A stretch of 64,000 nt of DNA from assembly GCA_034521595.1 (NCBI GenBank), contig JAXHMG010000003.1, positions 2,496,001 to 2,560,000 on the forward strand, in the 5' to 3' direction. Positions 33,088-58,884 of the stretch are shown here, piece after piece (within the stretch, counting starts at the first letter, position 1; every line of letters begins with the position of its first letter). Source of the DNA: Gemmatimonadota bacterium (GTDB taxonomy: Bacteria; Gemmatimonadota; Gemmatimonadetes; Longimicrobiales; Gaopeijiaceae). The notes under the pieces were generated by a model. The model saw only the letters and a program-made list of their open reading frames with translations, had not been told where the DNA came from and made no database searches. The translations under genes were made by a program, and so were the position numbers.

Positions 33088-33782
33088 CGATCCTGGAGCG
33101 CTCGCGCCCGCCGATACATGGCCGTCGCTTCAGCGGGCTCGAACCTGCGATCGTGCAGGTGTCCGAGCGTATAACACACCCTCGGATCGTCCGGAAGCAG
33201 CTCGGCAGCCCGCTGCATCACCGCGAACGCTTCCTCATACCGCCCGAGCCGATTCAGCGCCTCACCGCGATAGTAGTGCGCCGGTCCATGCTCCGGGTCC
33301 CGGTCGCAGACCCAGCGCAACTCCGGCTCGGCCTGCTGATACACGCCCTTCCGGAAGCGAACGATGCCGAGCTCCGCCCTCGGCTCGACGGCATCCGGCG
33401 CGAGCCTGAGCACTCTGCGCAGGACGGACTCCGCGTCACGATACTCCCCGAGCGCGCCGAGGCTGGCACCGAGGTTCGTCAGCACCTCGACGTTCTCCGG
33501 CTCCAGGCGCTGCGCGCTGCGAAACCGCTCGGTCGCTTCTCGGTGGCGACCGAGCTCGTCGTAAAGCACCCCCAGATTGTTCAGGGCCTTCAGGTTGTCC
33601 GGATCGTCTTTGAGGACCTCGACGTACAGCTCGACGGCTTCCTCGACGTTTCCCTCACCGACCAGGGCCTTGGCGCGCGCCAGGCGCTCGTCTCCTTCGT
33701 CCGCCGACGCCGCGGGTTCCCTTTGCTCGACCTCGGGAGCTTCCTCGGGGGCGCCTTCATCGCCCGTTCCCGTCCCCTTCAT
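33084..33782 (-). CDS. Tetratricopeptide repeat protein
   Basis: ALNNLGVLY, VLTNLGASL, AHYYRGEAL, VCYTLG repeats of about 34 aa. Confidence 0.9.
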   Translation of the reverse strand: MKGTGTGDEGAPEEAPEVEQREPAASADEGDERLARAKALVGEGNVEEAVELYVEVLKDDPDNLKALNNLGVLYDELGRHREATERFRSAQRLEPENVEVLTNLGASLGALGEYRDAESVLRRVLRLAPDAVEPRAELGIVRFRKGVYQQAEPELRWVCDRDPEHGPAHYYRGEALNRLGRYEEAFAVMQRAAELLPDDPRVCYTLGHLHDRRFEPAEATAMYRRARALQDR

Positions 33783-34117
33783 GGTCCGGGCCTCACCTCC
33801 TCCCGCACCCAGGCCAGGTACCGCTCATCTCCCCCTCCCACCGGAAGCTCGATCACCTCGGGCGAATCATAGGGATGCAACTCGATCACGCGCCGCCGCA
33901 GGCGCTCGAAGCCGTCCGAGGTGCTTTTCACGACCATCAGCACCTCGGCTTCCTTCTCCACCGAACCTTCCCAGCGGAACAGCGAGGTCACGCCCGGCAC
34001 GAGGTTCACGCATGCCGCGAGGTGCTCGTCGACGAGCACGCGGCCCACCCTCTCGGCCACATCCGTGTCGGGAGCCGTGATGAGAACGACGGAAATGCCG
34101 CGTCCACCGTCAGTCAT
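33779..34117 (-). CDS. cutA: Divalent-cation tolerance protein CutA
   Basis: LAACVN, SLFRWEG, HPYDSPEVI, YLAW motifs. Confidence 0.92.
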   Translation of the reverse strand: MTDGGRGISVVLITAPDTDVAERVGRVLVDEHLAACVNLVPGVTSLFRWEGSVEKEAEVLMVVKSTSDGFERLRRRVIELHPYDSPEVIELPVGGGDERYLAWVREEVRPGP

Positions 34118-35957
34118 CTGGATCGTACCCTCCATCGGCGGGTTCGTGTTCGTACAAGGCGTCGATGATCTCCTCGAAGTGCTCCTGCACCTTCCGTCTC
34201 TTGACCTTGAGCGACGGGGTGAGGAAGCCGTTCTCGACCGTCAACTCCTCGGACAGCAGAGCCAGCTTCTTCGGACGCTCGTAGCGGGCCACGTCGTCCA
34301 TGGACTCCAACGTCTCATGCTCCATGTGGGCCACGACTTCCGGGTGGCGCACCAATTCTTCTCGACCGGTCCATTTGAGCCCCTTCCCTTGCGCCCATCG
34401 CTCCAGGGCGGCGAAATCCGGCACGACGAGCAGGGAGGGGAACCGCCGCCGATCGCCGACGACCACGGCCTGTTCCACCAACGGATGCGTCTTGATCCGG
34501 TTCTCGATGGGTTGCGGCGCGATGTTCTTTCCACCGGCCGTCACGATGATATCCTTTTTCCGGTCCGTTATCGACAAATATCCGTCGTCGTCGATCTCGC
34601 CGATGTCCCCCGTCGCGAACCAACCCTCCTCGTCGATGACCGCCCGGGTCGCCTCCTCGTTCTTATAGTAGCCCTTCATGACCTGAGGACCGCGGACCAG
34701 GATCTCGCCGTCGTCGGCGATTCGCACCTCGGTCCCCGCAACAGGCTTGCCCACCGTCCCGATGCGGAAGTCCTCCTCGGTGTTCACATTGGTCACCGGA
34801 CTGGTCTCGGTGAGCCCGTAACCTTCGAGAATCGTGAGGCCGATGGAATAGAAGAAACGGTTCAGCTCCGGCGCGAGTGGTCCACCCCCGCTGACGAAGA
34901 TGCGGATACGACCTCCCACGGCATCCCTCACCTTGGAAAAGACCAGCCGGTCCGCGATGCGATACTGCAACGCCAGGAGGCCCTTCACGGGGCGCCCGGC
35001 CAGGCGGTCGTCAGCGGCACGATCAGCCACGCGCGCCCCCCAGCGCACGAGGAGCTTCTTCACTCCGGTCGCCGCCATCACGCGGTTGTGGACCTTCTCG
35101 TAGATGCGGGGAACCGAGACGACGACCGTCGGCTGAATGACCTTCATGTCGTCGGTCAGCGTATCGATGCTGCGCGGGTACGCGATCCGACAGCCCACCC
35201 ACATGAACAGGTAGTCGCACATGCGTTGCAGGATGTGCGACAGCGGGAGAAAGCTGACGGTGCTGTCGGCCTCGGTGACCTCGAACGCCATGCTGCTCGC
35301 GCGCACGTTGGACGCGATGTTGTTGTGCGAGAGCACGACCCCCTTCGGATCCCCGGTCGTTCCCGACGTATACAGGATCGTGGCCGTGTCGTCGGGAGTG
35401 ATGGAACTTGCCTTGCGGCGGAACTCCTCTTCCGTCGACCCGTCGGCGCGCTCGCGCCCCCGTTCGAGGAACTCCTCCCAGGGCACGACGCCGTCCGGAA
35501 GGTCGCCCGGGTCGAAGACCACCACCGTGATCTCCTGTGGACACTGCTCGGCGGCTTCGAGGACTTTCTCCGCCTGTTCGGGATCGGAGACGAAGGCCAT
35601 CCGCGCTCCCGAATCGCGCAACAGGTAGGCAGCCTGCCCCGCCGTCAACGTCGGGTAGATCGGGACCGGAATGATCGCCGTGCACAGGCATCCGTAATCC
35701 ACGAACGCCCACTCCGGCCGGTTCTCCGAAAGGATCGCGACCCGGTCGCTCCGGTCCACCCCGGACTCCTCCAGAGCGGCCGCGATGGTCCGGACCACGT
35801 CGAACGCCTCCCCGAAGGTGATGTCTTCGAGCACGCCCTCCGAGGGCATCCGCTGGAACGCGACCCGATCACGATGGCGGTCCAGAGACTCGAAGAAGAG
35901 CTCGGTGAGCGTCGACTCCGGCACGGGCGTCGGGTTCGAAGCGTAGTCGCGCGTCAT
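34110..35957 (-). CDS. Long-chain fatty acid-CoA ligase (AMP-binding)
   Basis: YTSGTTGDPKG, FLPLSH, EGYGLTETSP, WFATGDIG, ITDRKKD, LTPSLKVKR. Confidence 0.93.
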   Translation of the reverse strand: MTRDYASNPTPVPESTLTELFFESLDRHRDRVAFQRMPSEGVLEDITFGEAFDVVRTIAAALEESGVDRSDRVAILSENRPEWAFVDYGCLCTAIIPVPIYPTLTAGQAAYLLRDSGARMAFVSDPEQAEKVLEAAEQCPQEITVVVFDPGDLPDGVVPWEEFLERGRERADGSTEEEFRRKASSITPDDTATILYTSGTTGDPKGVVLSHNNIASNVRASSMAFEVTEADSTVSFLPLSHILQRMCDYLFMWVGCRIAYPRSIDTLTDDMKVIQPTVVVSVPRIYEKVHNRVMAATGVKKLLVRWGARVADRAADDRLAGRPVKGLLALQYRIADRLVFSKVRDAVGGRIRIFVSGGGPLAPELNRFFYSIGLTILEGYGLTETSPVTNVNTEEDFRIGTVGKPVAGTEVRIADDGEILVRGPQVMKGYYKNEEATRAVIDEEGWFATGDIGEIDDDGYLSITDRKKDIIVTAGGKNIAPQPIENRIKTHPLVEQAVVVGDRRRFPSLLVVPDFAALERWAQGKGLKWTGREELVRHPEVVAHMEHETLESMDDVARYERPKKLALLSEELTVENGFLTPSLKVKRRKVQEHFEEIIDALYEHEPADGGYDPDD

Positions 35958-36406
35958 CCGAGGGACGCCGCGTCGGGCCCGGAGAAGCCGGGAACGGTGA
36001 CGGTCACGTCCATCGACGGGTCCAACGAGTGGAGCACGCTGCAATACTTGTCTCGGGAGAGCTCCACCGCCCGCAGAACCTTTTCGGCGTCCTCGGGACC
36101 CGGGCCCTTCACGCGGCATACGAGCTCGAGACGCACGTACCGCCTGGGCGCCTCTTCGGCCCGCTCTCCAATCGCCTCGATCTCGAGACCATCCATCGGC
36201 ACACGCGACTTCTCGAGGATCATCTTGATGTCGATGCCCATGCAGCCGGCGACGGCCAACAAGAGCTGCTGCATGGGCGCGGGACCCTGGTCGGCGCCAC
36301 CGTCCACCACGACCTCGGGACCACCATCCGGACCACCCCGGAAGACGAGACCGTCACCGCTCCAACGAAGGCGGATTTGGCGGAGGTTCTCATTCGAAGA
36401 AGTCAT
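35954..36406 (-). CDS. OsmC/YhfA family protein
   Basis: GPAPMQ..L.AVAGCMG and SRDKYCSV conserved Cys pair. Confidence 0.88.
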   Translation of the reverse strand: MTSSNENLRQIRLRWSGDGLVFRGGPDGGPEVVVDGGADQGPAPMQQLLLAVAGCMGIDIKMILEKSRVPMDGLEIEAIGERAEEAPRRYVRLELVCRVKGPGPEDAEKVLRAVELSRDKYCSVLHSLDPSMDVTVTVPGFSGPDAASLG

Positions 36407-36848
36407 CGGGTGCCGGTTGGTCGAGAGAGCGGTCATGCGCCTCCCCTCGCAGCTTGGCGAGCGTGCGGCGCGCGTGTTCTATGTGGTCGCTGGCCTCCCC
36501 CCCCTCCGGAGGCTGAGCGAGAAAGGCTTCGAGGTGGGGAATGCACTGCTCCGGGGACTCCGTGTGAAGGAGAATGAACGCCAGTCCGTAATGGGCTCCC
36601 GCGGAGGCCGGATTCTTCTGGAGCACGTGTCGGTAGGTCTTGGCGGCTTCCTCCAACATCCCGATCCGTGTGTAACACATCGCGATCTGCTGGAGCACGA
36701 CCGGATCACCCGGCGACTCCTTGAGCGCGAGGCGGAACGAGGTCAACGCCTCGTGGATCTTTTCCGCGGCGAGCAACTCCTCACCTTCGCGGTAGTAGTC
36801 GACACGATCGGGATCGTCGTCACCGAAGAGCTTCTTCCAAAACGCCAT
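36390..36848 (-). CDS. Tetratricopeptide repeat protein
   Basis: MAFWKKLFG start; VLQQIAMCY and AHYGLAFIL TPR-like repeats. Confidence 0.8.
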   Translation of the reverse strand: MAFWKKLFGDDDPDRVDYYREGEELLAAEKIHEALTSFRLALKESPGDPVVLQQIAMCYTRIGMLEEAAKTYRHVLQKNPASAGAHYGLAFILLHTESPEQCIPHLEAFLAQPPEGGEASDHIEHARRTLAKLRGEAHDRSLDQPAPDDFFE

Positions 36849-36951: not shown

Positions 36952-37587
36952 TCAACTCCGTGCCGCGACGACGGTTCCGGCTTCGGTCGCGAGGACCTCG
37001 AGCCCGTGCGATTCGAGCGCCTTTGCCGTCTCGGCCCCGGCGTGCACGACCACCACCCGTCCCTTCGGCACGACGACACGCGCAGCCTCCGCCAGCAGTT
37101 CGGAACCGAGGCGACCGTCGATCGCGATCCCACGCAGGGACAAGCTGTATACCGGCAAGCCCGGAGTGGCCATCAATCGGCTCACGCCGTTGCTTTCAGG
37201 CCACATCTTCTGATCCGGATCGATCGCCAGGACGTGCACGTCGTCCACCCGGTCCGCGAGCGCACGAGCGTGCCGGGAGGGCGCCCCCACGAGCGCGAGC
37301 GTTCCCGGACCCTGGGTCACGCCGAGCAAAGCGATGACCTTGTCCGCATCGGTGTCGGCTTCCCCCTCCCCTCCGGGCATCCCCGCAAGGCCCTCGGGCA
37401 TCTCACGGCGAGGCGGGGCGCGGAGATCCCCGAAGCCATCCCGTACGGGAAAGGCGTCACGACAGTTCGGACATCCGAGCGTACCGTGGAGCACCCTGCG
37501 ATCCTCGAGTCGATCGGCCAGAAGGATGAGGCCGAACTCCGGACCACAACGGGGACAACTCAGACGATCGGTCAGCAGAAGGTGCAT
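36952..37587 (-). CDS. Trm112-like zinc-ribbon domain fused to a degenerate methyltransferase-like fold
   Basis: LSCPRC...LGCPNCRDAFPVRDG N-terminus; C-terminal VLAID and LAEAARVVVPKGRVVV resembling class I MTase motifs. Confidence 0.6.
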   Translation of the reverse strand: MHLLLTDRLSCPRCGPEFGLILLADRLEDRRVLHGTLGCPNCRDAFPVRDGFGDLRAPPRREMPEGLAGMPGGEGEADTDADKVIALLGVTQGPGTLALVGAPSRHARALADRVDDVHVLAIDPDQKMWPESNGVSRLMATPGLPVYSLSLRGIAIDGRLGSELLAEAARVVVPKGRVVVVHAGAETAKALESHGLEVLATEAGTVVAARS

Positions 37588-37618: not shown

Positions 37619-38344
37619 TCAGGCGTGCTCGATCTGGAGTAGCGGGATGCGGACGTCCCGTGGGCATCGGGCAACGAACAGGGCCGCATCGGCTACGTCT
37701 TCGGGACGTAGCATGGCCGAGCGGGGAGGAAGGCTCGGATCGGCGTCGGGATCGAGAGGATCCCAGATGGACGTATCGGTCGCCGAGGGCTCCAGGAGCG
37801 TGGCCCGAACCCCGGTCCCGCGCACCTCCTCCAGGAGCACCTCGTGAAAACCTCTGAGCCCGAACTTGGACGCGGAATACGCCCCATTCCCAGGAAGAGC
37901 CTTTCGTCCCGCCACCGAGCCCACGTTGACGATCAACCCCGAGCCACGCTCCAGCATGGAAGGCAGCAGGGTTCGCACCACCAGAACGGGAGCCCGGAGG
38001 TTAAGGGCCAACTCCAGGTCGAGCGCCGCCACGGTTTCCTCGGCGATCGGAGTGATTCCGAAGACGCCCGCCGCGTTCACGACGACATCGGGGGCCCCTT
38101 CGAGCTCGTCGCTCAGGCGGTCCATCGCGTCCCAGACGGCCACGTCGTCGGTCAGATCCACGACGAGCGCTCGTCCTCCCGTCTCGTCGGCCAACCTCCG
38201 CAACGCGTCCTCCGAGCGGCCGAGTCCGAACACGCGCGCGCCCGCCGCTGCGAACCGCTCCGCGATGCACCGTCCGATGCCCCGGCTCGCTCCGGTGACC
38301 AAGACGCTTCGGCCATCCAGGGCTCCGTGCTCCGTGGTGCTCAT
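37619..38344 (-). CDS. SDR oxidoreductase, candidate sepiapterin reductase
   Basis: [21 protein letters not shown] overlap with folE. SDR family is secure; the specific function is inferred from context. Confidence 0.8.
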
Positions 38345-38949
38345 CCCAACGGCTGATGCGAGCTGGTCGTGAGTCGCAGGAACTCGTCCCGCGTCCGTTG
38401 ATCGTCCAGGAACACTCCGCGCATGGCTGAGGTGATCGTCTTCGAATTCTGCTTCTCGACCCCCCGCATCATCATGCAGAGATGATAGGCTTCCACGACC
38501 ACCGCGACCCCTAGTGGCTGCACCGTGTCCCACATGGCCTGCGCGACCTGCTCCGTGAGCCGCTCCTGAACCTGGAACCGGCGGGCGAACACCTCGACGA
38601 GGCGGGCGACCTTCGAAAGGCCCACGATCTGTCCGTTCGGGATGTACGCCAGGTGCGCCTTGCCGAAGAACGGAAGCATGTGGTGCTCACACATCGAATA
38701 GAGCTCGATGTCCTTCACGAGCACCATGCTCTGGTGGGACTCGTCGAAGAGCGCATCCCCCATCACCTGCTCGGGTGTCTCCCGATACCCCTTCGTGAGG
38801 AAGGCCATCGATTCGGCCACCCGTTCCGGCGTGCGCTTCATCCCTTCCCGGGTAGGATCTTCCCCCAGGCGCCGGATCATCTCCGAGACGAGGTCCTCGA
38901 ACGAGGCCGTGCCGAGGTCCCCATCTCCACCCCTCTTCCGTTCACTCAT
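38341..38949 (-). CDS. folE: GTP cyclohydrolase I
   Basis: [40 protein letters not shown]. Confidence 0.97.
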
Positions 38950-39379
38950 GCGCCGTGTCCTCCTGCGGGCCACGATACTCCACGGAGTTGTTCGGTGTCT
39001 CCCGGATCACGACGCTCCGCAGCCGCACCTCTTCCGGCAGCCGCTCGGCGATCCGCTCCCAGACCGCCACCGCGAGATTCTCGGTGGATGGAATGATCCC
39101 GGAGAGCCACGGCACTTCGACGTTCAGGTTCTTGTGATCGACGTCCACCACGACCCGACTCTGGATGATGTCCTTCAACCGCTTCAGGTCCATGACGAAC
39201 CCGGTCTCGGGATCGACCGACCCCTCCACGGAGACGATCAGCTCGTAGTTGTGACCGTGCCAATTCGGGTTCGCGCAATCCCCGAACACGCGGAGGTTCT
39301 CCTCTTCGGACCAGTCGTCGCGGTGCAAGCGGTGCGCCGCGGAGAAGTAGGCGCGACGGGTCACGGTTACGATCGACAT
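38942..39379 (-). CDS. 6-pyruvoyl-tetrahydropterin synthase family protein with C-x5-HGH (PTPS-II-type) motif
   Basis: [35 protein letters not shown]. Confidence 0.9.
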
Positions 39380-43790: not shown

Positions 43791-44540
43791 ATGAAGGGAC
43801 CACCATCGCAACGCGTCGCACTCGTCACCGGAGGGGCCGTTCGCATCGGCGCGGCCATCAGCGAGGGGCTCGCCCACACCGGCCACGACCTCGTCGTGAC
43901 GTACCGGTCGTCCGAAGAGCCCGCACGGGAGCTCGAGGAGCGGGTCCGGTCGCTCGGGCGCCGATGCGCGCTGGTATGGGCGGATCTGGCGGATCCCCAG
44001 GGATGCGCGGCCGTGGTCCGCACCGCCGCTGAGAGCTACGGACGGCTCGACGTGGTCGTGAACTCGGCGTCGACCTTCGAGGCCCGGCCACTCGCTTCCG
44101 TCGACGCGGCCGCCTGGGATGCCGTCATGGCCGTGAACGTGCGCGCACCCCATCTCGTGGTCCGCGCCGCCATCGACCTCCTGCGCGCCTCCCGGGGCTC
44201 GGTCGTCAACATCGCGGATCTGTCCGCGCTCGAACCGTGGACGGCGTTTCCGGATCACTCGGTCTCGAAAGCCGCGCTGGTCCACCTGACCCGCGTGCAA
44301 GCGAAGTCTCTGGCTCCCGAAGTGCGGGTCAACGCCGTCGTGCCCGGAGCCGTGCTCCAGCCCGAGCACAGCTCTCCGGCACACTGGGATCGTCTGGCCA
44401 AGGCCGCCCCGCTCGAGCGGACCGGCTCTCCGGCGGACGTGGTCGACGCCGTGCGCTACCTCATCGCCGCGGAGTTCGTGACCGGACAAGTCCTGACGGT
44501 GGACGGCGGACGCTCGCTCGGGACGACCACCCCACCTTGA
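43791..44540 (+). CDS. Pteridine reductase/FolM-like SDR
   Basis: TGGAVRIG (Arg in the glycine loop), NSAS, VNIAD, LAPEVRVN, VTGQVLTVDGG. Confidence 0.75.
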   Translation: MKGPPSQRVALVTGGAVRIGAAISEGLAHTGHDLVVTYRSSEEPARELEERVRSLGRRCALVWADLADPQGCAAVVRTAAESYGRLDVVVNSASTFEARPLASVDAAAWDAVMAVNVRAPHLVVRAAIDLLRASRGSVVNIADLSALEPWTAFPDHSVSKAALVHLTRVQAKSLAPEVRVNAVVPGAVLQPEHSSPAHWDRLAKAAPLERTGSPADVVDAVRYLIAAEFVTGQVLTVDGGRSLGTTTPP

Positions 44541-55949: not shown

Positions 55950-56927
55950 TCATTCGAAGGCGTCCGGCACCACCTCGTACATCTTCGAGGCCATCTGGTC
56001 CGCCGAACACATCGTGGACAGGTCGAGCTCGAAGTCGGGGCGCTCGGACGGTTGGAGCTTCCCGAGGAGCTCCCGGATCTCACGGGCGGAGAGGCCCAGC
56101 CCGGCCAGCTCCTCGTGGCCGAGCGCAGCTCCGTCGCGGACCCGGATGCCGTCGTCCGTCGGCTCGAGCAGGCGCGCCAAGGCGTTGCGCTCGGCCAAGC
56201 TGAGCGGCTCACCGCCCAGGTCGTAGTCGATCCAGGCCTCGTAGCTGAGCGGAGCCACACGCTTGACCATGGCCGCGATCACCTCCGCGAAAGCGCGGAT
56301 CTCGTACTGCGCGCGGGGATCGACGCGCAGCGAGAGGAAGTGCAGCAGGTTGTGGAGATCGATCTTCCAGTACCACTGCGTATAGGTCGAGACGGGAAGG
56401 TCGATGCGGGCGATCTCGCGCGCGACATCCTCCTCGAGCAGCCATCCGTAGGTCCCCCCCGCATCGGTCCGGAGGCGCTCCCAGCGCTCGACGGCCTCCC
56501 GATACACCTCGGGCGGCGCGCCGGCGTCCCGCCCCTGCTTGTTGGTGCGGCTCTGGAGGGCGAAATGTTCTTCGTCGGGCGTGTAGAAGAGGAGCGGCAT
56601 CAGGGAGTACCGGGCGGAGAGCTCGTTGACCGACGCCGTACGATGCCGGATCCACTGGCGAGCGACGAACATCGGCATCGCACAGTGGAACTTGAGCTCC
56701 ACCATCTCCGAGGGCGTGGTGTGGCGGTGCCGCCGCAAGAATCGGAGCAGGCCTCTCGTTTGGGACACTTTACGCGTCCCGAATCCGTAGCTCACCCGAG
56801 CGGCGCGCTCCACGTCCCCGTCGGACCCCATGTAGTCCACGAGTGCGACGAATCCGTGGTCCAACACGGGAAAATAGCCACCGACGATCTCCTCGGCGGC
56901 GGCGGTGGTCGGGCGTCGGGTTTCCAT
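55950..56927 (-). CDS. thyX: FAD-dependent thymidylate synthase
   Basis: AARVSY, RHRTASVNELSARY ThyX motif, AREIARIDLP, AQYEIR. Confidence 0.96.
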   Translation of the reverse strand: METRRPTTAAAEEIVGGYFPVLDHGFVALVDYMGSDGDVERAARVSYGFGTRKVSQTRGLLRFLRRHRHTTPSEMVELKFHCAMPMFVARQWIRHRTASVNELSARYSLMPLLFYTPDEEHFALQSRTNKQGRDAGAPPEVYREAVERWERLRTDAGGTYGWLLEEDVAREIARIDLPVSTYTQWYWKIDLHNLLHFLSLRVDPRAQYEIRAFAEVIAAMVKRVAPLSYEAWIDYDLGGEPLSLAERNALARLLEPTDDGIRVRDGAALGHEELAGLGLSAREIRELLGKLQPSERPDFELDLSTMCSADQMASKMYEVVPDAFE

Positions 56928-57027
56928 GGCGCTGGGGATCGGGGAGAAGAGGTCGTTCGAATCTCGACCGGCGGCACGCTCGACGGAAGGGATGGACGCG
57001 AGCCGGAAACCCCGCACCGCCGGAGGA

Positions 57028-58884
57028 TCAGAACGTCTCGGGGCCCAGAGCGAACCACCGGCTCCGGCGCACCTCGGGGTTGAAGAAGCCGGAGCGGAAC
57101 TTGTTCAGCTCGAAGGTGACCCGGAAGATCGGGTCCGAGCCGACAGAGCCGACGGGAAAAACCACGTCGGCGCGCCAGATGTTGCGGGTTCCCGCCGGCA
57201 GCCCGATCCGCAGGCCGAAGCCGACCGAGCCCTGCCATCCGGAATCGACACCGTAAGGCACGTCCCCCGGCAGGACCCGTCCTGCCTCGCCGAACACGGT
57301 CGCGCCGAGGTCCGCCGTGTTCGGCCCGGGCCAGCCGAACGCGATCCGGTCCTCGAGCACGAACAGCAGCATGCGTCCGCCCGGCAACAGGTCCTCCGGC
57401 AACGCTCGCACTCCTTCGCGCCCCCCGAGGCTGAGCTGGTAGGGCACCGTGGTGTTCCATCCCCCTCCGACCGACGCACGCGCGAACCACGTTTGGCCCG
57501 GCAAATAGCCGCTCCGTCCGTAGAAGACCAGGTCCGCGGCCCCGAGGACGTCTTCCCATCGCCCGTTCGCCCACCGACCCTCGAGGGTAGTGCCCCCGTG
57601 CAGCAGCGACCGGCCCAGAGGAGCGGTGAAGCTGGCATGCACGCGACCGGCCAGGTCGTCCAGGCGTTCCACACCGGACGGCGCGAAGGCGGGGATTCCC
57701 TGGGCCAAGCTGATGCCCGCGAACATTCCGAGTCCAACCGTCTGCCGATCGCGCACGCCGTCGAGCCCGACGTACTCCTCGTACCGGAACCTGCGGGTAC
57801 CGAGATGGATCCCGAGCCGCGTCGCCGCCGTCGGTCGCCACTGCCTCGCCATGGCAACGGGAGGCTCACCCTCCAGCGGTAGCCGCTCGTCATACCCCTC
57901 GCCCAGCGTGATCTCGGGCACTCCGTCGTAGCGCGAGACGTCACGGGTCAGGCTGCCGCCCACGATGATCGACGCCCCCGGCTCTCCGAACCGGTGCGCC
58001 GCGGAGAGCTCGATCTCGTCGCGGAAGACCGGCACGAGCACGCGCGTGTGCTGCTCCCTTCCGCCGGTCGAATACCCGAAGAAGTCCGAGCCGCGCGAAT
58101 AACCCTCCCGCAGCGCCCACTGCCCGGCCTCCCCGAGGAACGGGTACCGGACATGCTGCTCGAAGAAGGGGCCCGACCTCGAACGCCCCCCTGCGATCCC
58201 GGCGTCCACCCTCCCGAAGAAGCGAGGCGTGGACACCCCGAACTCGTGCGTGCGCACCTCCCGGCGCTCCACGTACGTGAACTCACCGAAGACGCCCTGA
58301 CCGAGGAAGTTCTCCTCAGTCACCTGGAGCTTCTCGACGTTCGTACCCTCGTCGTAGGTCACCCCCAAGTCGACCTTCGTGGACCATTCGTCCCGGGTGG
58401 TGACGGAAGCCACGTGTCCCCCGTTGCCGTCCGACCTCGACTCGACTCGGGCGGATGCGAGGAATCCGTATTGGTCCAGGAGCCGCTCGGACTCGGACAG
58501 CAGGAACGGATCGAGGCAGTCCCCCTCCTCGAACAGGAGCTCCCTTTCGATGAACGATTCCTGGGTGTTCACGTGCAGCAGGTTGGCGAACCCGTACGCC
58601 AGGGCGAGGGGCGTGAACGGAGTTCCCTCCGGATCGAAGATGGATCGGCTTTCGACCTCGATCGCGGTGATCCGACCACTCGTGCAGACATCGTCGACCG
58701 TCAGCGTGCTGATGTCGCGGTCGGGGCCGCCGGATGCGTCGTCCTGGGCGGCGCCGGACACCGGCAGCGCGAGCATGCACCACGACGCGAGCAGCATCGA
58801 CCACGCGGGCACGGGAGCGCGGGACGGTCGAGGGCGGTGGGCGGCGAAGCCCACGAGCGTTCGTATCGAATCGGGATGCATCAC
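57028..58884 (-). CDS. Omp85/BamA-TamA-like outer membrane protein
   Basis: Signal peptide, POTRA-like IERELLFEEGD...ESERLL, barrel motif LGGREGVRA, VGFGLRIG, terminal Phe; start uncertain. Confidence 0.75.
   Translation of the reverse strand: MMHPDSIRTLVGFAAHRPRPSRAPVPAWSMLLASWCMLALPVSGAAQDDASGGPDRDISTLTVDDVCTSGRITAIEVESRSIFDPEGTPFTPLALAYGFANLLHVNTQESFIERELLFEEGDCLDPFLLSESERLLDQYGFLASARVESRSDGNGGHVASVTTRDEWSTKVDLGVTYDEGTNVEKLQVTEENFLGQGVFGEFTYVERREVRTHEFGVSTPRFFGRVDAGIAGGRSRSGPFFEQHVRYPFLGEAGQWALREGYSRGSDFFGYSTGGREQHTRVLVPVFRDEIELSAAHRFGEPGASIIVGGSLTRDVSRYDGVPEITLGEGYDERLPLEGEPPVAMARQWRPTAATRLGIHLGTRRFRYEEYVGLDGVRDRQTVGLGMFAGISLAQGIPAFAPSGVERLDDLAGRVHASFTAPLGRSLLHGGTTLEGRWANGRWEDVLGAADLVFYGRSGYLPGQTWFARASVGGGWNTTVPYQLSLGGREGVRALPEDLLPGGRMLLFVLEDRIAFGWPGPNTADLGATVFGEAGRVLPGDVPYGVDSGWQGSVGFGLRIGLPAGTRNIWRADVVFPVGSVGSDPIFRVTFELNKFRSGFFNPEVRRSRWFALGPETF

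Follow-up and report, generated by a model that had tools for sequence, protein, structure and literature searches.

Do three overlapping genes in a Gemmatimonadota bacterium encode a complete route from GTP to a tetrahydrobiopterin (BH4)-type pterin, and what would such a pterin be for? This is the question raised by the stretch of 64,000 nucleotides analysed here (the window, C3:2496001-2560000, GC ~66%), which belongs to a 93% complete genome of 3.49 Mb in three contigs. Biopterin-type pterins are well understood in animals and are known from few bacterial groups, and their purpose in bacteria outside aromatic amino-acid hydroxylation is unclear. Translation of the window reveals, head to tail on the minus strand, genes for a 6-pyruvoyl-tetrahydropterin synthase (PTPS), a GTP cyclohydrolase I (FolE) and a short-chain dehydrogenase/reductase (SDR). 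Our analysis suggests, with a probability of roughly two in three, that this PTPS-FolE-SDR set is a pterin branch making a tetrahydrobiopterin-type pterin from GTP. A preliminary description of the locus had proposed a complete BH4 operon; the FolE and PTPS-II steps of that proposal are carried by homology, and the reductase step by gene context rather than by homology to a characterised reductase.

Gene layout and the first two enzymes

Gene positions are given in window coordinates except where they carry the C3 prefix. The PTPS gene (38942-39379, minus strand, 145 aa) ends in a TGA at 38944-38942, and the start codon of folE (ATG, 38949-38947) sits 8 bp inside it. At its other end folE (38341-38949, minus strand) overlaps the SDR gene (37619-38344, minus strand, 241 aa) as ATGA, with the SDR ATG at 38344-38342 and the folE TGA at 38343-38341. 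The overlapping arrangement described earlier is thereby confirmed in all coordinates and motifs. Promoter-like or terminator-like sites were not seen at the cluster, and Rfam gave no match of note there, with one chance microRNA match at E=0.75.

The assignment of the first protein to the PTPS-II type rests on several comparisons. It scores 120.5 bits on PF01242 (cut-off 22.4), and its best solved relatives in a PDB sequence search are rat PTPS (1B66, E=2.8e-38, aligned over residues 6-137) and human PTPS (3I2B, 9e-38), with E. coli QueD (4NTM) far behind at 2.9e-8. Relative to the rat enzyme it retains H16 (in AAHRL), C35, H41 and H43 (in HGH), D81-H82 (in DHKNL) and E127 (the RET/YET glutamate), which we take to be the zinc ligands and the Cys/Asp-His/Glu catalytic residues. 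The active-site motif, reported earlier as CANPNWHGH, is present in the translation as C-x5-HGH, with a P where PTPS-III has an E. In a comparative genomics study of COG0720 (PMC5041015), C-x5-HGH is given as the signature of PTPS-II, C-x3-HGH as that of QueD and E-x2-HGH as that of PTPS-III. Curated NCBIfam models place the protein below their thresholds, scoring 93.9 bits against 125.5 for TIGR00039 and 63.8 against 89.25 for the QueD model TIGR03367, and none of these models names it above its cut-off. Taken together, the motif and the lead of the rat and human enzymes over QueD bear out the earlier view that this is an animal-like, biopterin-type enzyme, and strong homology predicts that it synthesizes 6-pyruvoyl-tetrahydropterin. 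FolE is identified by the TIGR00063 equivalog model (257.6 bits, cut-off 181.6) and by NF006825 (269 bits), and folE is the only PF01227 match in the genome.

A caveat attaches to the motif. Genomes of two other Gemmatimonadota families (f4 and f5) often carry a second C-x5-HGH PTPS paralogue in other contexts, so the motif alone is no proof of biopterin function; among five QueC-positive relatives checked that have such a second paralogue, four hold a separate short QueD-like copy. At three of six annotated loci (L148 in G010, L150 in G127 and L151 in G059), all in families other than that of our genome, the second paralogue lies beside genes for FdhD, MobA/MobB and a tungstate/molybdate-type ABC transporter, so that a PTPS-II-like protein is linked, for reasons yet to be explained, to molybdenum/tungsten cofactor genes. 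Our genome itself has a second PF01242 gene (C3:1086737-1087114), which we considered as a QueD or BH4 enzyme and rejected as unrelated: it is of the PTPS-IV type (SCO6650, 3D7J, E=1.7e-42), and LHGATY replaces the HGH motif. It is flanked by a zinc-dehydrogenase-like gene and a GT4 glycosyltransferase gene (C3:1085600-1088300).

The reductase and its conserved gene context

The third gene encodes an intact SDR of the classical NADPH type (PF00106, 149 bits), which its context makes a candidate reductase of the 6-pyruvoyl side chain. The protein contains the cofactor motif TGASRGIG, and its AlphaFold model has a pLDDT of 94. Across 36 orthologues the tetrad N115, S143, Y156 and K160 is invariant, as are R43, F95, W194, D195, R208, M211 and the arginines typical of the NADPH type, and the orthologues share an invariant C-terminal segment, TDTxxWD...R..M.

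The distribution of this gene provides the main argument for its involvement in pterin synthesis. Our phylum sample comprised 150 other Gemmatimonadota genomes, with thresholds of E<=1e-40 for SDR orthologues and E<=1e-15 for PTPS-II-like genes; a separate family sample covered 40 genomes from 40 genera of the organism's own family (f1). The tallies for SDR, hydroxylase, PTPS-II and QueC include the unpublished genome G057, that for QueC also takes in unpublished G097, and a 13-genome PF01242 tally given below takes in unpublished G197; no conclusion rests on these three alone. An SDR orthologue occurs in 102 of the 150 genomes and a PTPS-II-like gene in 112, and comparison of the two lists places a PTPS-II-like gene in 94 of the 102 SDR-positive genomes. 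At the 29 best foreign loci the SDR gene lies with both PTPS and folE in 15 cases, with PTPS alone in nine and with folE alone in four, while a contig end cuts the remaining one; one or both of these genes thus neighbour the SDR at 28 of the 29. At one of the four folE-only loci (in G019) PTPS lies just beyond the retrieved stretch. The sampled relatives are kin, and these counts are not independent events. The flanks of the cluster differ among families f1, f4, f5 and f8, and folE may be in or out. Because the adjacency survives this rearrangement, a functional tie between the SDR and PTPS is supported.

When relatives outside the phylum were sought, seven of at least 80 loci listed had PTPS or folE nearby; five of the seven proved to be from Gemmatimonadota, and the other two (L065 and L083) carry a different SDR type. 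Among the matches listed, the SDR family therefore looks phylum-specific. A literature search, in which subscription journals were thinly covered, found no description of the cluster in Gemmatimonadota. As a separate observation, L065 (3959-7800), from an unrelated metagenome-assembled genome of an unclassified bacterium, holds a fuller pterin cluster. Judged by labels read from translations of its open reading frames, it comprises a PTPS-II (CNWDNGHGH), a FabG-type SDR, a membrane protein of small size, an oppositely oriented FolK, a reductase resembling PTR1/FolM (TGGAKRVG), a QueD-like gene with C-x3-HGH and a glutamine-amidotransferase-like reading frame.

On these grounds we propose the following route. 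FolE, by strong homology, would convert GTP to 7,8-dihydroneopterin triphosphate; PTPS-II, by homology and by the exclusion of rival roles discussed below, would convert this to 6-pyruvoyl-tetrahydropterin; and the SDR, as gene order and its intact active site suggest, would reduce one side-chain carbonyl or both at the expense of NADPH. The product could be the erythro form, the threo form or a half-reduced lactoyl or hydroxy-oxopropyl form, all of which are compatible with the sequence. In genomes that have a phenylalanine hydroxylase this enzyme would use the pterin as cofactor, with recycling by pterin-4a-carbinolamine dehydratase (PCD) and perhaps also by a FolM/PTR1-like reductase. A zinc-ribbon/methyltransferase-fold protein that is the usual companion of the SDR may modify or handle the product.

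Several observations weigh against this proposal, and they concern the reductase, its context in some genomes and the enzymes that would use the pterin. Against the animal sepiapterin reductase (SPR) model TIGR01500 the SDR scores 29.1 bits, where the cut-off is 206.55, and ranks seventh of eight SDR matches in the genome. No SPR, the Chlorobium enzyme 2BD0 included, is found among its 60 best PDB sequence matches, the closest of which are a Thermus SDR (2EHD, 7e-29), 3ASU (1.7e-27) and 2JAH (1.4e-26). The preliminary description had singled out two segments of the SDR, [14 protein letters not shown] and MLRPEDVA, as resembling the Chlorobium enzyme. Both are present in the translation, and the resemblance is not borne out: in a PDB phmmer search the C-terminal 62 residues, which contain MLRPEDVA, match solely generic SDRs with LKPEDVAEA-like segments. 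In structural comparison no SPR appears among the Foldseek matches listed, and although VIA-align superposes the SDR model on 2BD0 with Z 30.8 (root-mean-square deviation 1.9 A over 224 residues, 28% identity, rank 5 of 1000), this is a tie with many others, since the top score is 31.8 (2JAH), dozens of unrelated SDRs lie within 1 Z unit, and the match is no better than those to FabG, clavulanate dehydrogenase and others. With 2BD0 not among the matches listed by the two phmmer searches (whole protein and C-terminal 62 residues) or by Foldseek, and tied in VIA-align, we rejected a special resemblance; a distant relationship may still link the two. These comparisons place the SDR outside the family of animal SPR enzymes and do not demonstrate a Chlorobium type either. 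Of the earlier identification of the SDR as the sepiapterin reductase, the link to PTPS through conserved adjacency stands, and the special resemblance to the Chlorobium enzyme does not.

The context is likewise incomplete in places. Eight of the 102 SDR-positive genomes, from three genera, have no close PTPS-II orthologue at the threshold used, and the six of these that were examined keep the order folE-SDR-(gene)-Trm112-like with no PTPS within 5 kb. Because folE and the SDR are kept together in genomes without a close PTPS-II orthologue, the SDR substrate might come from the FolE product by another route. Other PF01242 members are found elsewhere in one such genus, in 13 of 13 sampled genomes.

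The 64-kb window holds no biopterin-dependent enzyme, as had been noted earlier, and the genome holds one outside it: when aromatic amino acid hydroxylase, NO synthase and alkylglycerol monooxygenase were sought genome-wide, a check put forward in the preliminary description, the hydroxylase was the only one found; the 93%-complete genome gave no match to NO synthase or to the fatty-acid-hydroxylase family, of which alkylglycerol monooxygenase is a member. This sole Biopterin_H gene, of the phenylalanine hydroxylase type, lies 345 kb from the cluster at C3:2880282-2880978 (locus L005, ~1440-2330) and is split over three frames by two frameshifts. The shifts fall within ~130 bp, and each fits one missing G in a short run of G. 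In a search of public reads for these positions, the share of sampled words contained in a run never exceeded 0.11. Since the other nine matches, from the nine family searches that had matches in the genome, are each in one piece, a pseudogene is somewhat more likely than a random assembly error. A hydroxylase was not found in 35 of the 40 family relatives.

Two further SDRs of the genome deserve mention beside the one in the cluster. P0125 (C3:2260498-2261289) is the best TIGR01500 match of the genome at 90.7 bits, which is below the cut-off, and reaches human and mouse SPR at ~6e-20. We considered it as the true SPR and rejected it as the conserved partner: it stands apart from the pterin genes, and only one of 40 family relatives has an orthologue. 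It resembles benzil reductases (locus L042, 4496-5290, minus strand). P0005 (42998-43717, minus strand), a paralogue that shares 31% identity with the SDR of the cluster, is flanked by FumC on one side and the FolM/PTR1-like gene on the other and scores above the NF005594 cut-off (302 against 271 bits).

Pterin recycling, companion genes and rival explanations

The hydroxylase occurs in 49 of the 150 phylum genomes, and of these 49 a PTPS-II-like gene is present in 47 and the SDR in 40. Of the 40 genomes in the family sample, 38 have PCD (two copies in some), 28 have the SDR and five have the hydroxylase; all five hydroxylase carriers also have the SDR. Hydroxylase carriers thus nearly always have the module, and most module carriers are without the hydroxylase. 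The genome analysed here encodes a PCD with the segment EEEGHHP...Y...H. Near-universal PCD beside a rare hydroxylase points to either another pterin-dependent oxygenase or a different role for PCD.

A FolM/PTR1-like pteridine reductase is encoded at 43791-44540 on the plus strand. Its best PDB match is FolM (5TGD, 1.1e-33), trypanosomatid PTR1 follows at ~2e-27, and the 'pteridine reductase' model NF006598 gives 230 bits against a cut-off of 288. The protein carries TGGAVRIG, an instance of the TGxxxRxG motif that presumably marks the FolM/PTR1 family. In seven of 25 loci, each with the gene order of the own family, this gene is found near the cluster with FumC between. Searches of the genome and of 12 family relatives did not find FolA (PF00186), and ThyX is encoded in the window (55953-57104, minus strand); because of these two findings the FolM/PTR1-like protein may, just as possibly as acting as a dihydropterin-reducing accessory, substitute for dihydrofolate reductase.

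The gene that follows the SDR is conserved in this position. It begins 32 bp after the SDR stop (36952-37587, minus strand) and encodes a 211-residue protein that combines a Trm112-like zinc ribbon (PF03966, residues 3-51, E=1.6e-6) with a diverged class I methyltransferase fold. The remaining 150 residues match no Pfam family, and no methyltransferase Pfam is reached even at E<=1. The second assignment comes from the structural model (pLDDT 89.5), which matches class I methyltransferases of the Atlas with TM 0.80-0.86 and has RlmA(I) (1P91, E=2e-8) as its top Foldseek match, followed by other methyltransferases; RlmA(I) methylates rRNA and likewise combines a zinc finger with a methyltransferase domain. 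Of 25 loci, 19 have an orthologue of this fourth gene no more than 2.5 kb downstream of the SDR, abutting it in 13 of the 19, and six of six further loci have one as well, which makes 25 of 31. In class I methyltransferases the binding of S-adenosylmethionine (SAM) relies on motif I (GxGxG) and on an acidic residue kept after strand 2. An alignment of 20 orthologues of the fourth protein shows no GxGxG, and the position after strand 2 is D, A, G or N. Because the motif is missing and the acidic residue variable, SAM binding by the fourth protein appears doubtful.

Further downstream lie an OsmC-like gene (35954-36436, minus strand) and a CutA gene (33779-34135, minus strand), the latter 3.5 kb from the SDR, in the order CutA, acyl-CoA synthetase, OsmC, TPR, Trm112-like, SDR. 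The CutA end of this order is kept in six of 25 loci, all from the organism's own family. CutA binds pteridines such as isosepiapterin, according to a 2025 report (PMC12685090). The proximity of CutA forms part of a family-level collinearity and is a lead, not a finding.

A quite different account of the locus would assign the PTPS to QueD or to the FolB bypass and would see in the SDR a chance neighbour, a YdfG-like 3-hydroxy-acid dehydrogenase unrelated to it. Such an account could draw on the public names of close SDR homologues, which are only 'SDR family oxidoreductase' or 'YdfG', on the match of the PTPS to the QueD model, which falls under the cut-off, and on a TGT gene in the genome. 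The search for queC that the preliminary description had proposed gives another picture: QueC was not found by family search in the 93%-complete genome, and 19 other sampled genomes of the order (f1-f3) show weak partial matches at best E=2.9e-7, whereas full QueC (E below 1e-60) is present in most genomes of f4, f5 and f10-f12. PTPS-II-like genes are present in 15 of 16 f1 genomes despite this result, and TGT without QueC suggests queuosine salvage. The genome encodes both FolB and FolP, together at C3:1.808 Mb. Since QueC was not found and FolB and FolP are present, queuosine and folate-bypass roles for the PTPS are unlikely. The motif, which is neither C-x3-HGH nor E-x2-HGH, and a PTPS-SDR adjacency kept across several families of the phylum speak further against chance neighbours, and we consider the account as a whole very improbable.

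Two other explanations accept a pterin pathway and change its product or the place of the SDR in it. In the one, the core of the cluster is the SDR with the fourth protein, and PTPS-II, FolE and these two would make an undescribed pterin, perhaps one bearing a methyl group or another modification, whose main job is not phenylalanine hydroxylation and which feeds an unrecognised enzyme or serves redox or metal homeostasis. The frequent and often abutting position of the fourth gene behind the SDR agrees with this, as do the persistence of SDR and fourth gene where PTPS or folE has left the cluster and the excess of the SDR over the hydroxylase in the family. An unrecognised pterin-dependent oxygenase, at which PCD in 38 of 40 relatives hints, would explain why PCD is near universal and the hydroxylase rare; the homeostasis variant is suggested by the pteridine-binding CutA and OsmC just downstream in the own family. 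Yet PCD-family proteins reportedly have roles apart from hydroxylases, SAM binding by the fourth protein is in doubt for the reasons given above, and its best solved look-alike, RlmA(I), indicates that it may be an unrelated RNA enzyme kept by collinearity, all of which leaves this explanation unlikely, if the strongest of the competitors. In the other, the SDR would reduce the pterin ring, recycling or activating it in the manner of DHPR, FolM or PTR1, which are all SDR-fold enzymes, and another enzyme would reduce the side chain. The occurrence of folE-SDR without PTPS, at four of 29 loci and at all six loci examined from genomes without a close PTPS-II orthologue, fits this idea, as does the need for alternative reductases where FolA was not found. 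However, the PTPS product is already a tetrahydropterin and its synthesis needs no ring reductase, recycling would serve little purpose in 23 of the 28 SDR-positive family genomes, which have no hydroxylase, a separate FolM/PTR1-like protein with TGxxxRxG exists while the SDR has an ordinary TGASRGIG, and the 60 best PDB matches of the SDR include no DHPR, FolM or PTR1. We judge a ring reductase to be less probable still than a modified pterin, and we favour side-chain reduction by the SDR in a branch leading to a tetrahydrobiopterin-type pterin.

Relation to known pterin systems

Across Gemmatimonadota, a phylum abundant in soils and sediments, the PTPS-II/SDR module is common, and the names that its SDR receives in public annotation hide it from view. 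What is new here is the spread of the module in this phylum, an SDR family apart from animal SPR, the fourth gene and the mismatch between PCD and hydroxylase. The SDR is a candidate sepiapterin reductase of a third, non-orthologous kind, and the four genes form an easily cloned set with which to ask what bacterial biopterins are for.

The BH4-type pathway is known from animals, Chlorobium and cyanobacteria. With the animal pathway the Gemmatimonadota cluster would share the first two enzymes, C-x5-HGH and DHKNL being common to rat PTPS, and an NADPH-type SDR as the third gene product. The SDR is not an orthologue of animal SPR, however, the genes form one overlapping operon, and most carrier genomes are without an aromatic amino-acid hydroxylase. 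The nearest solved relatives of the SDR in sequence and structure are E. coli YdfG and classical NADP-dependent SDRs (3ASV, 2EHD, 2JAH). No member of this group is known to act on pterins, and the SDR differs from them in its own C-terminal segment TDTxxWD...R..M and in its pterin-gene context.

Chlorobium (Chlorobaculum) tepidum offers a bacterial parallel, with a PTPS-II-type pathway and a short SDR of ~240 aa as its final reductase, although 2BD0 shares just 28% identity with the SDR and many unrelated SDRs match as well. Phe-99 and Trp-196 are substrate-positioning residues of the Chlorobium enzyme, and the invariant F95 and W194 of the SDR are at most candidate counterparts. The Chlorobium enzyme makes the L-threo isomer, according to titles cited in PMC7520308. 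The COG0720 study mentioned above ('PTPS paralogs' subsystem) treats a C-x5-HGH PTPS that co-occurs or is clustered with a reductase as a BH4 pathway, in ~50 bacteria (PMC5041015), and the logic that we apply to the Gemmatimonadota cluster is the same. Unlike those predicted clusters, the one described here is widespread, with its SDR in about two thirds of the phylum sample (102/150), has a fourth gene conserved beside it and in most carriers comes without the hydroxylase.

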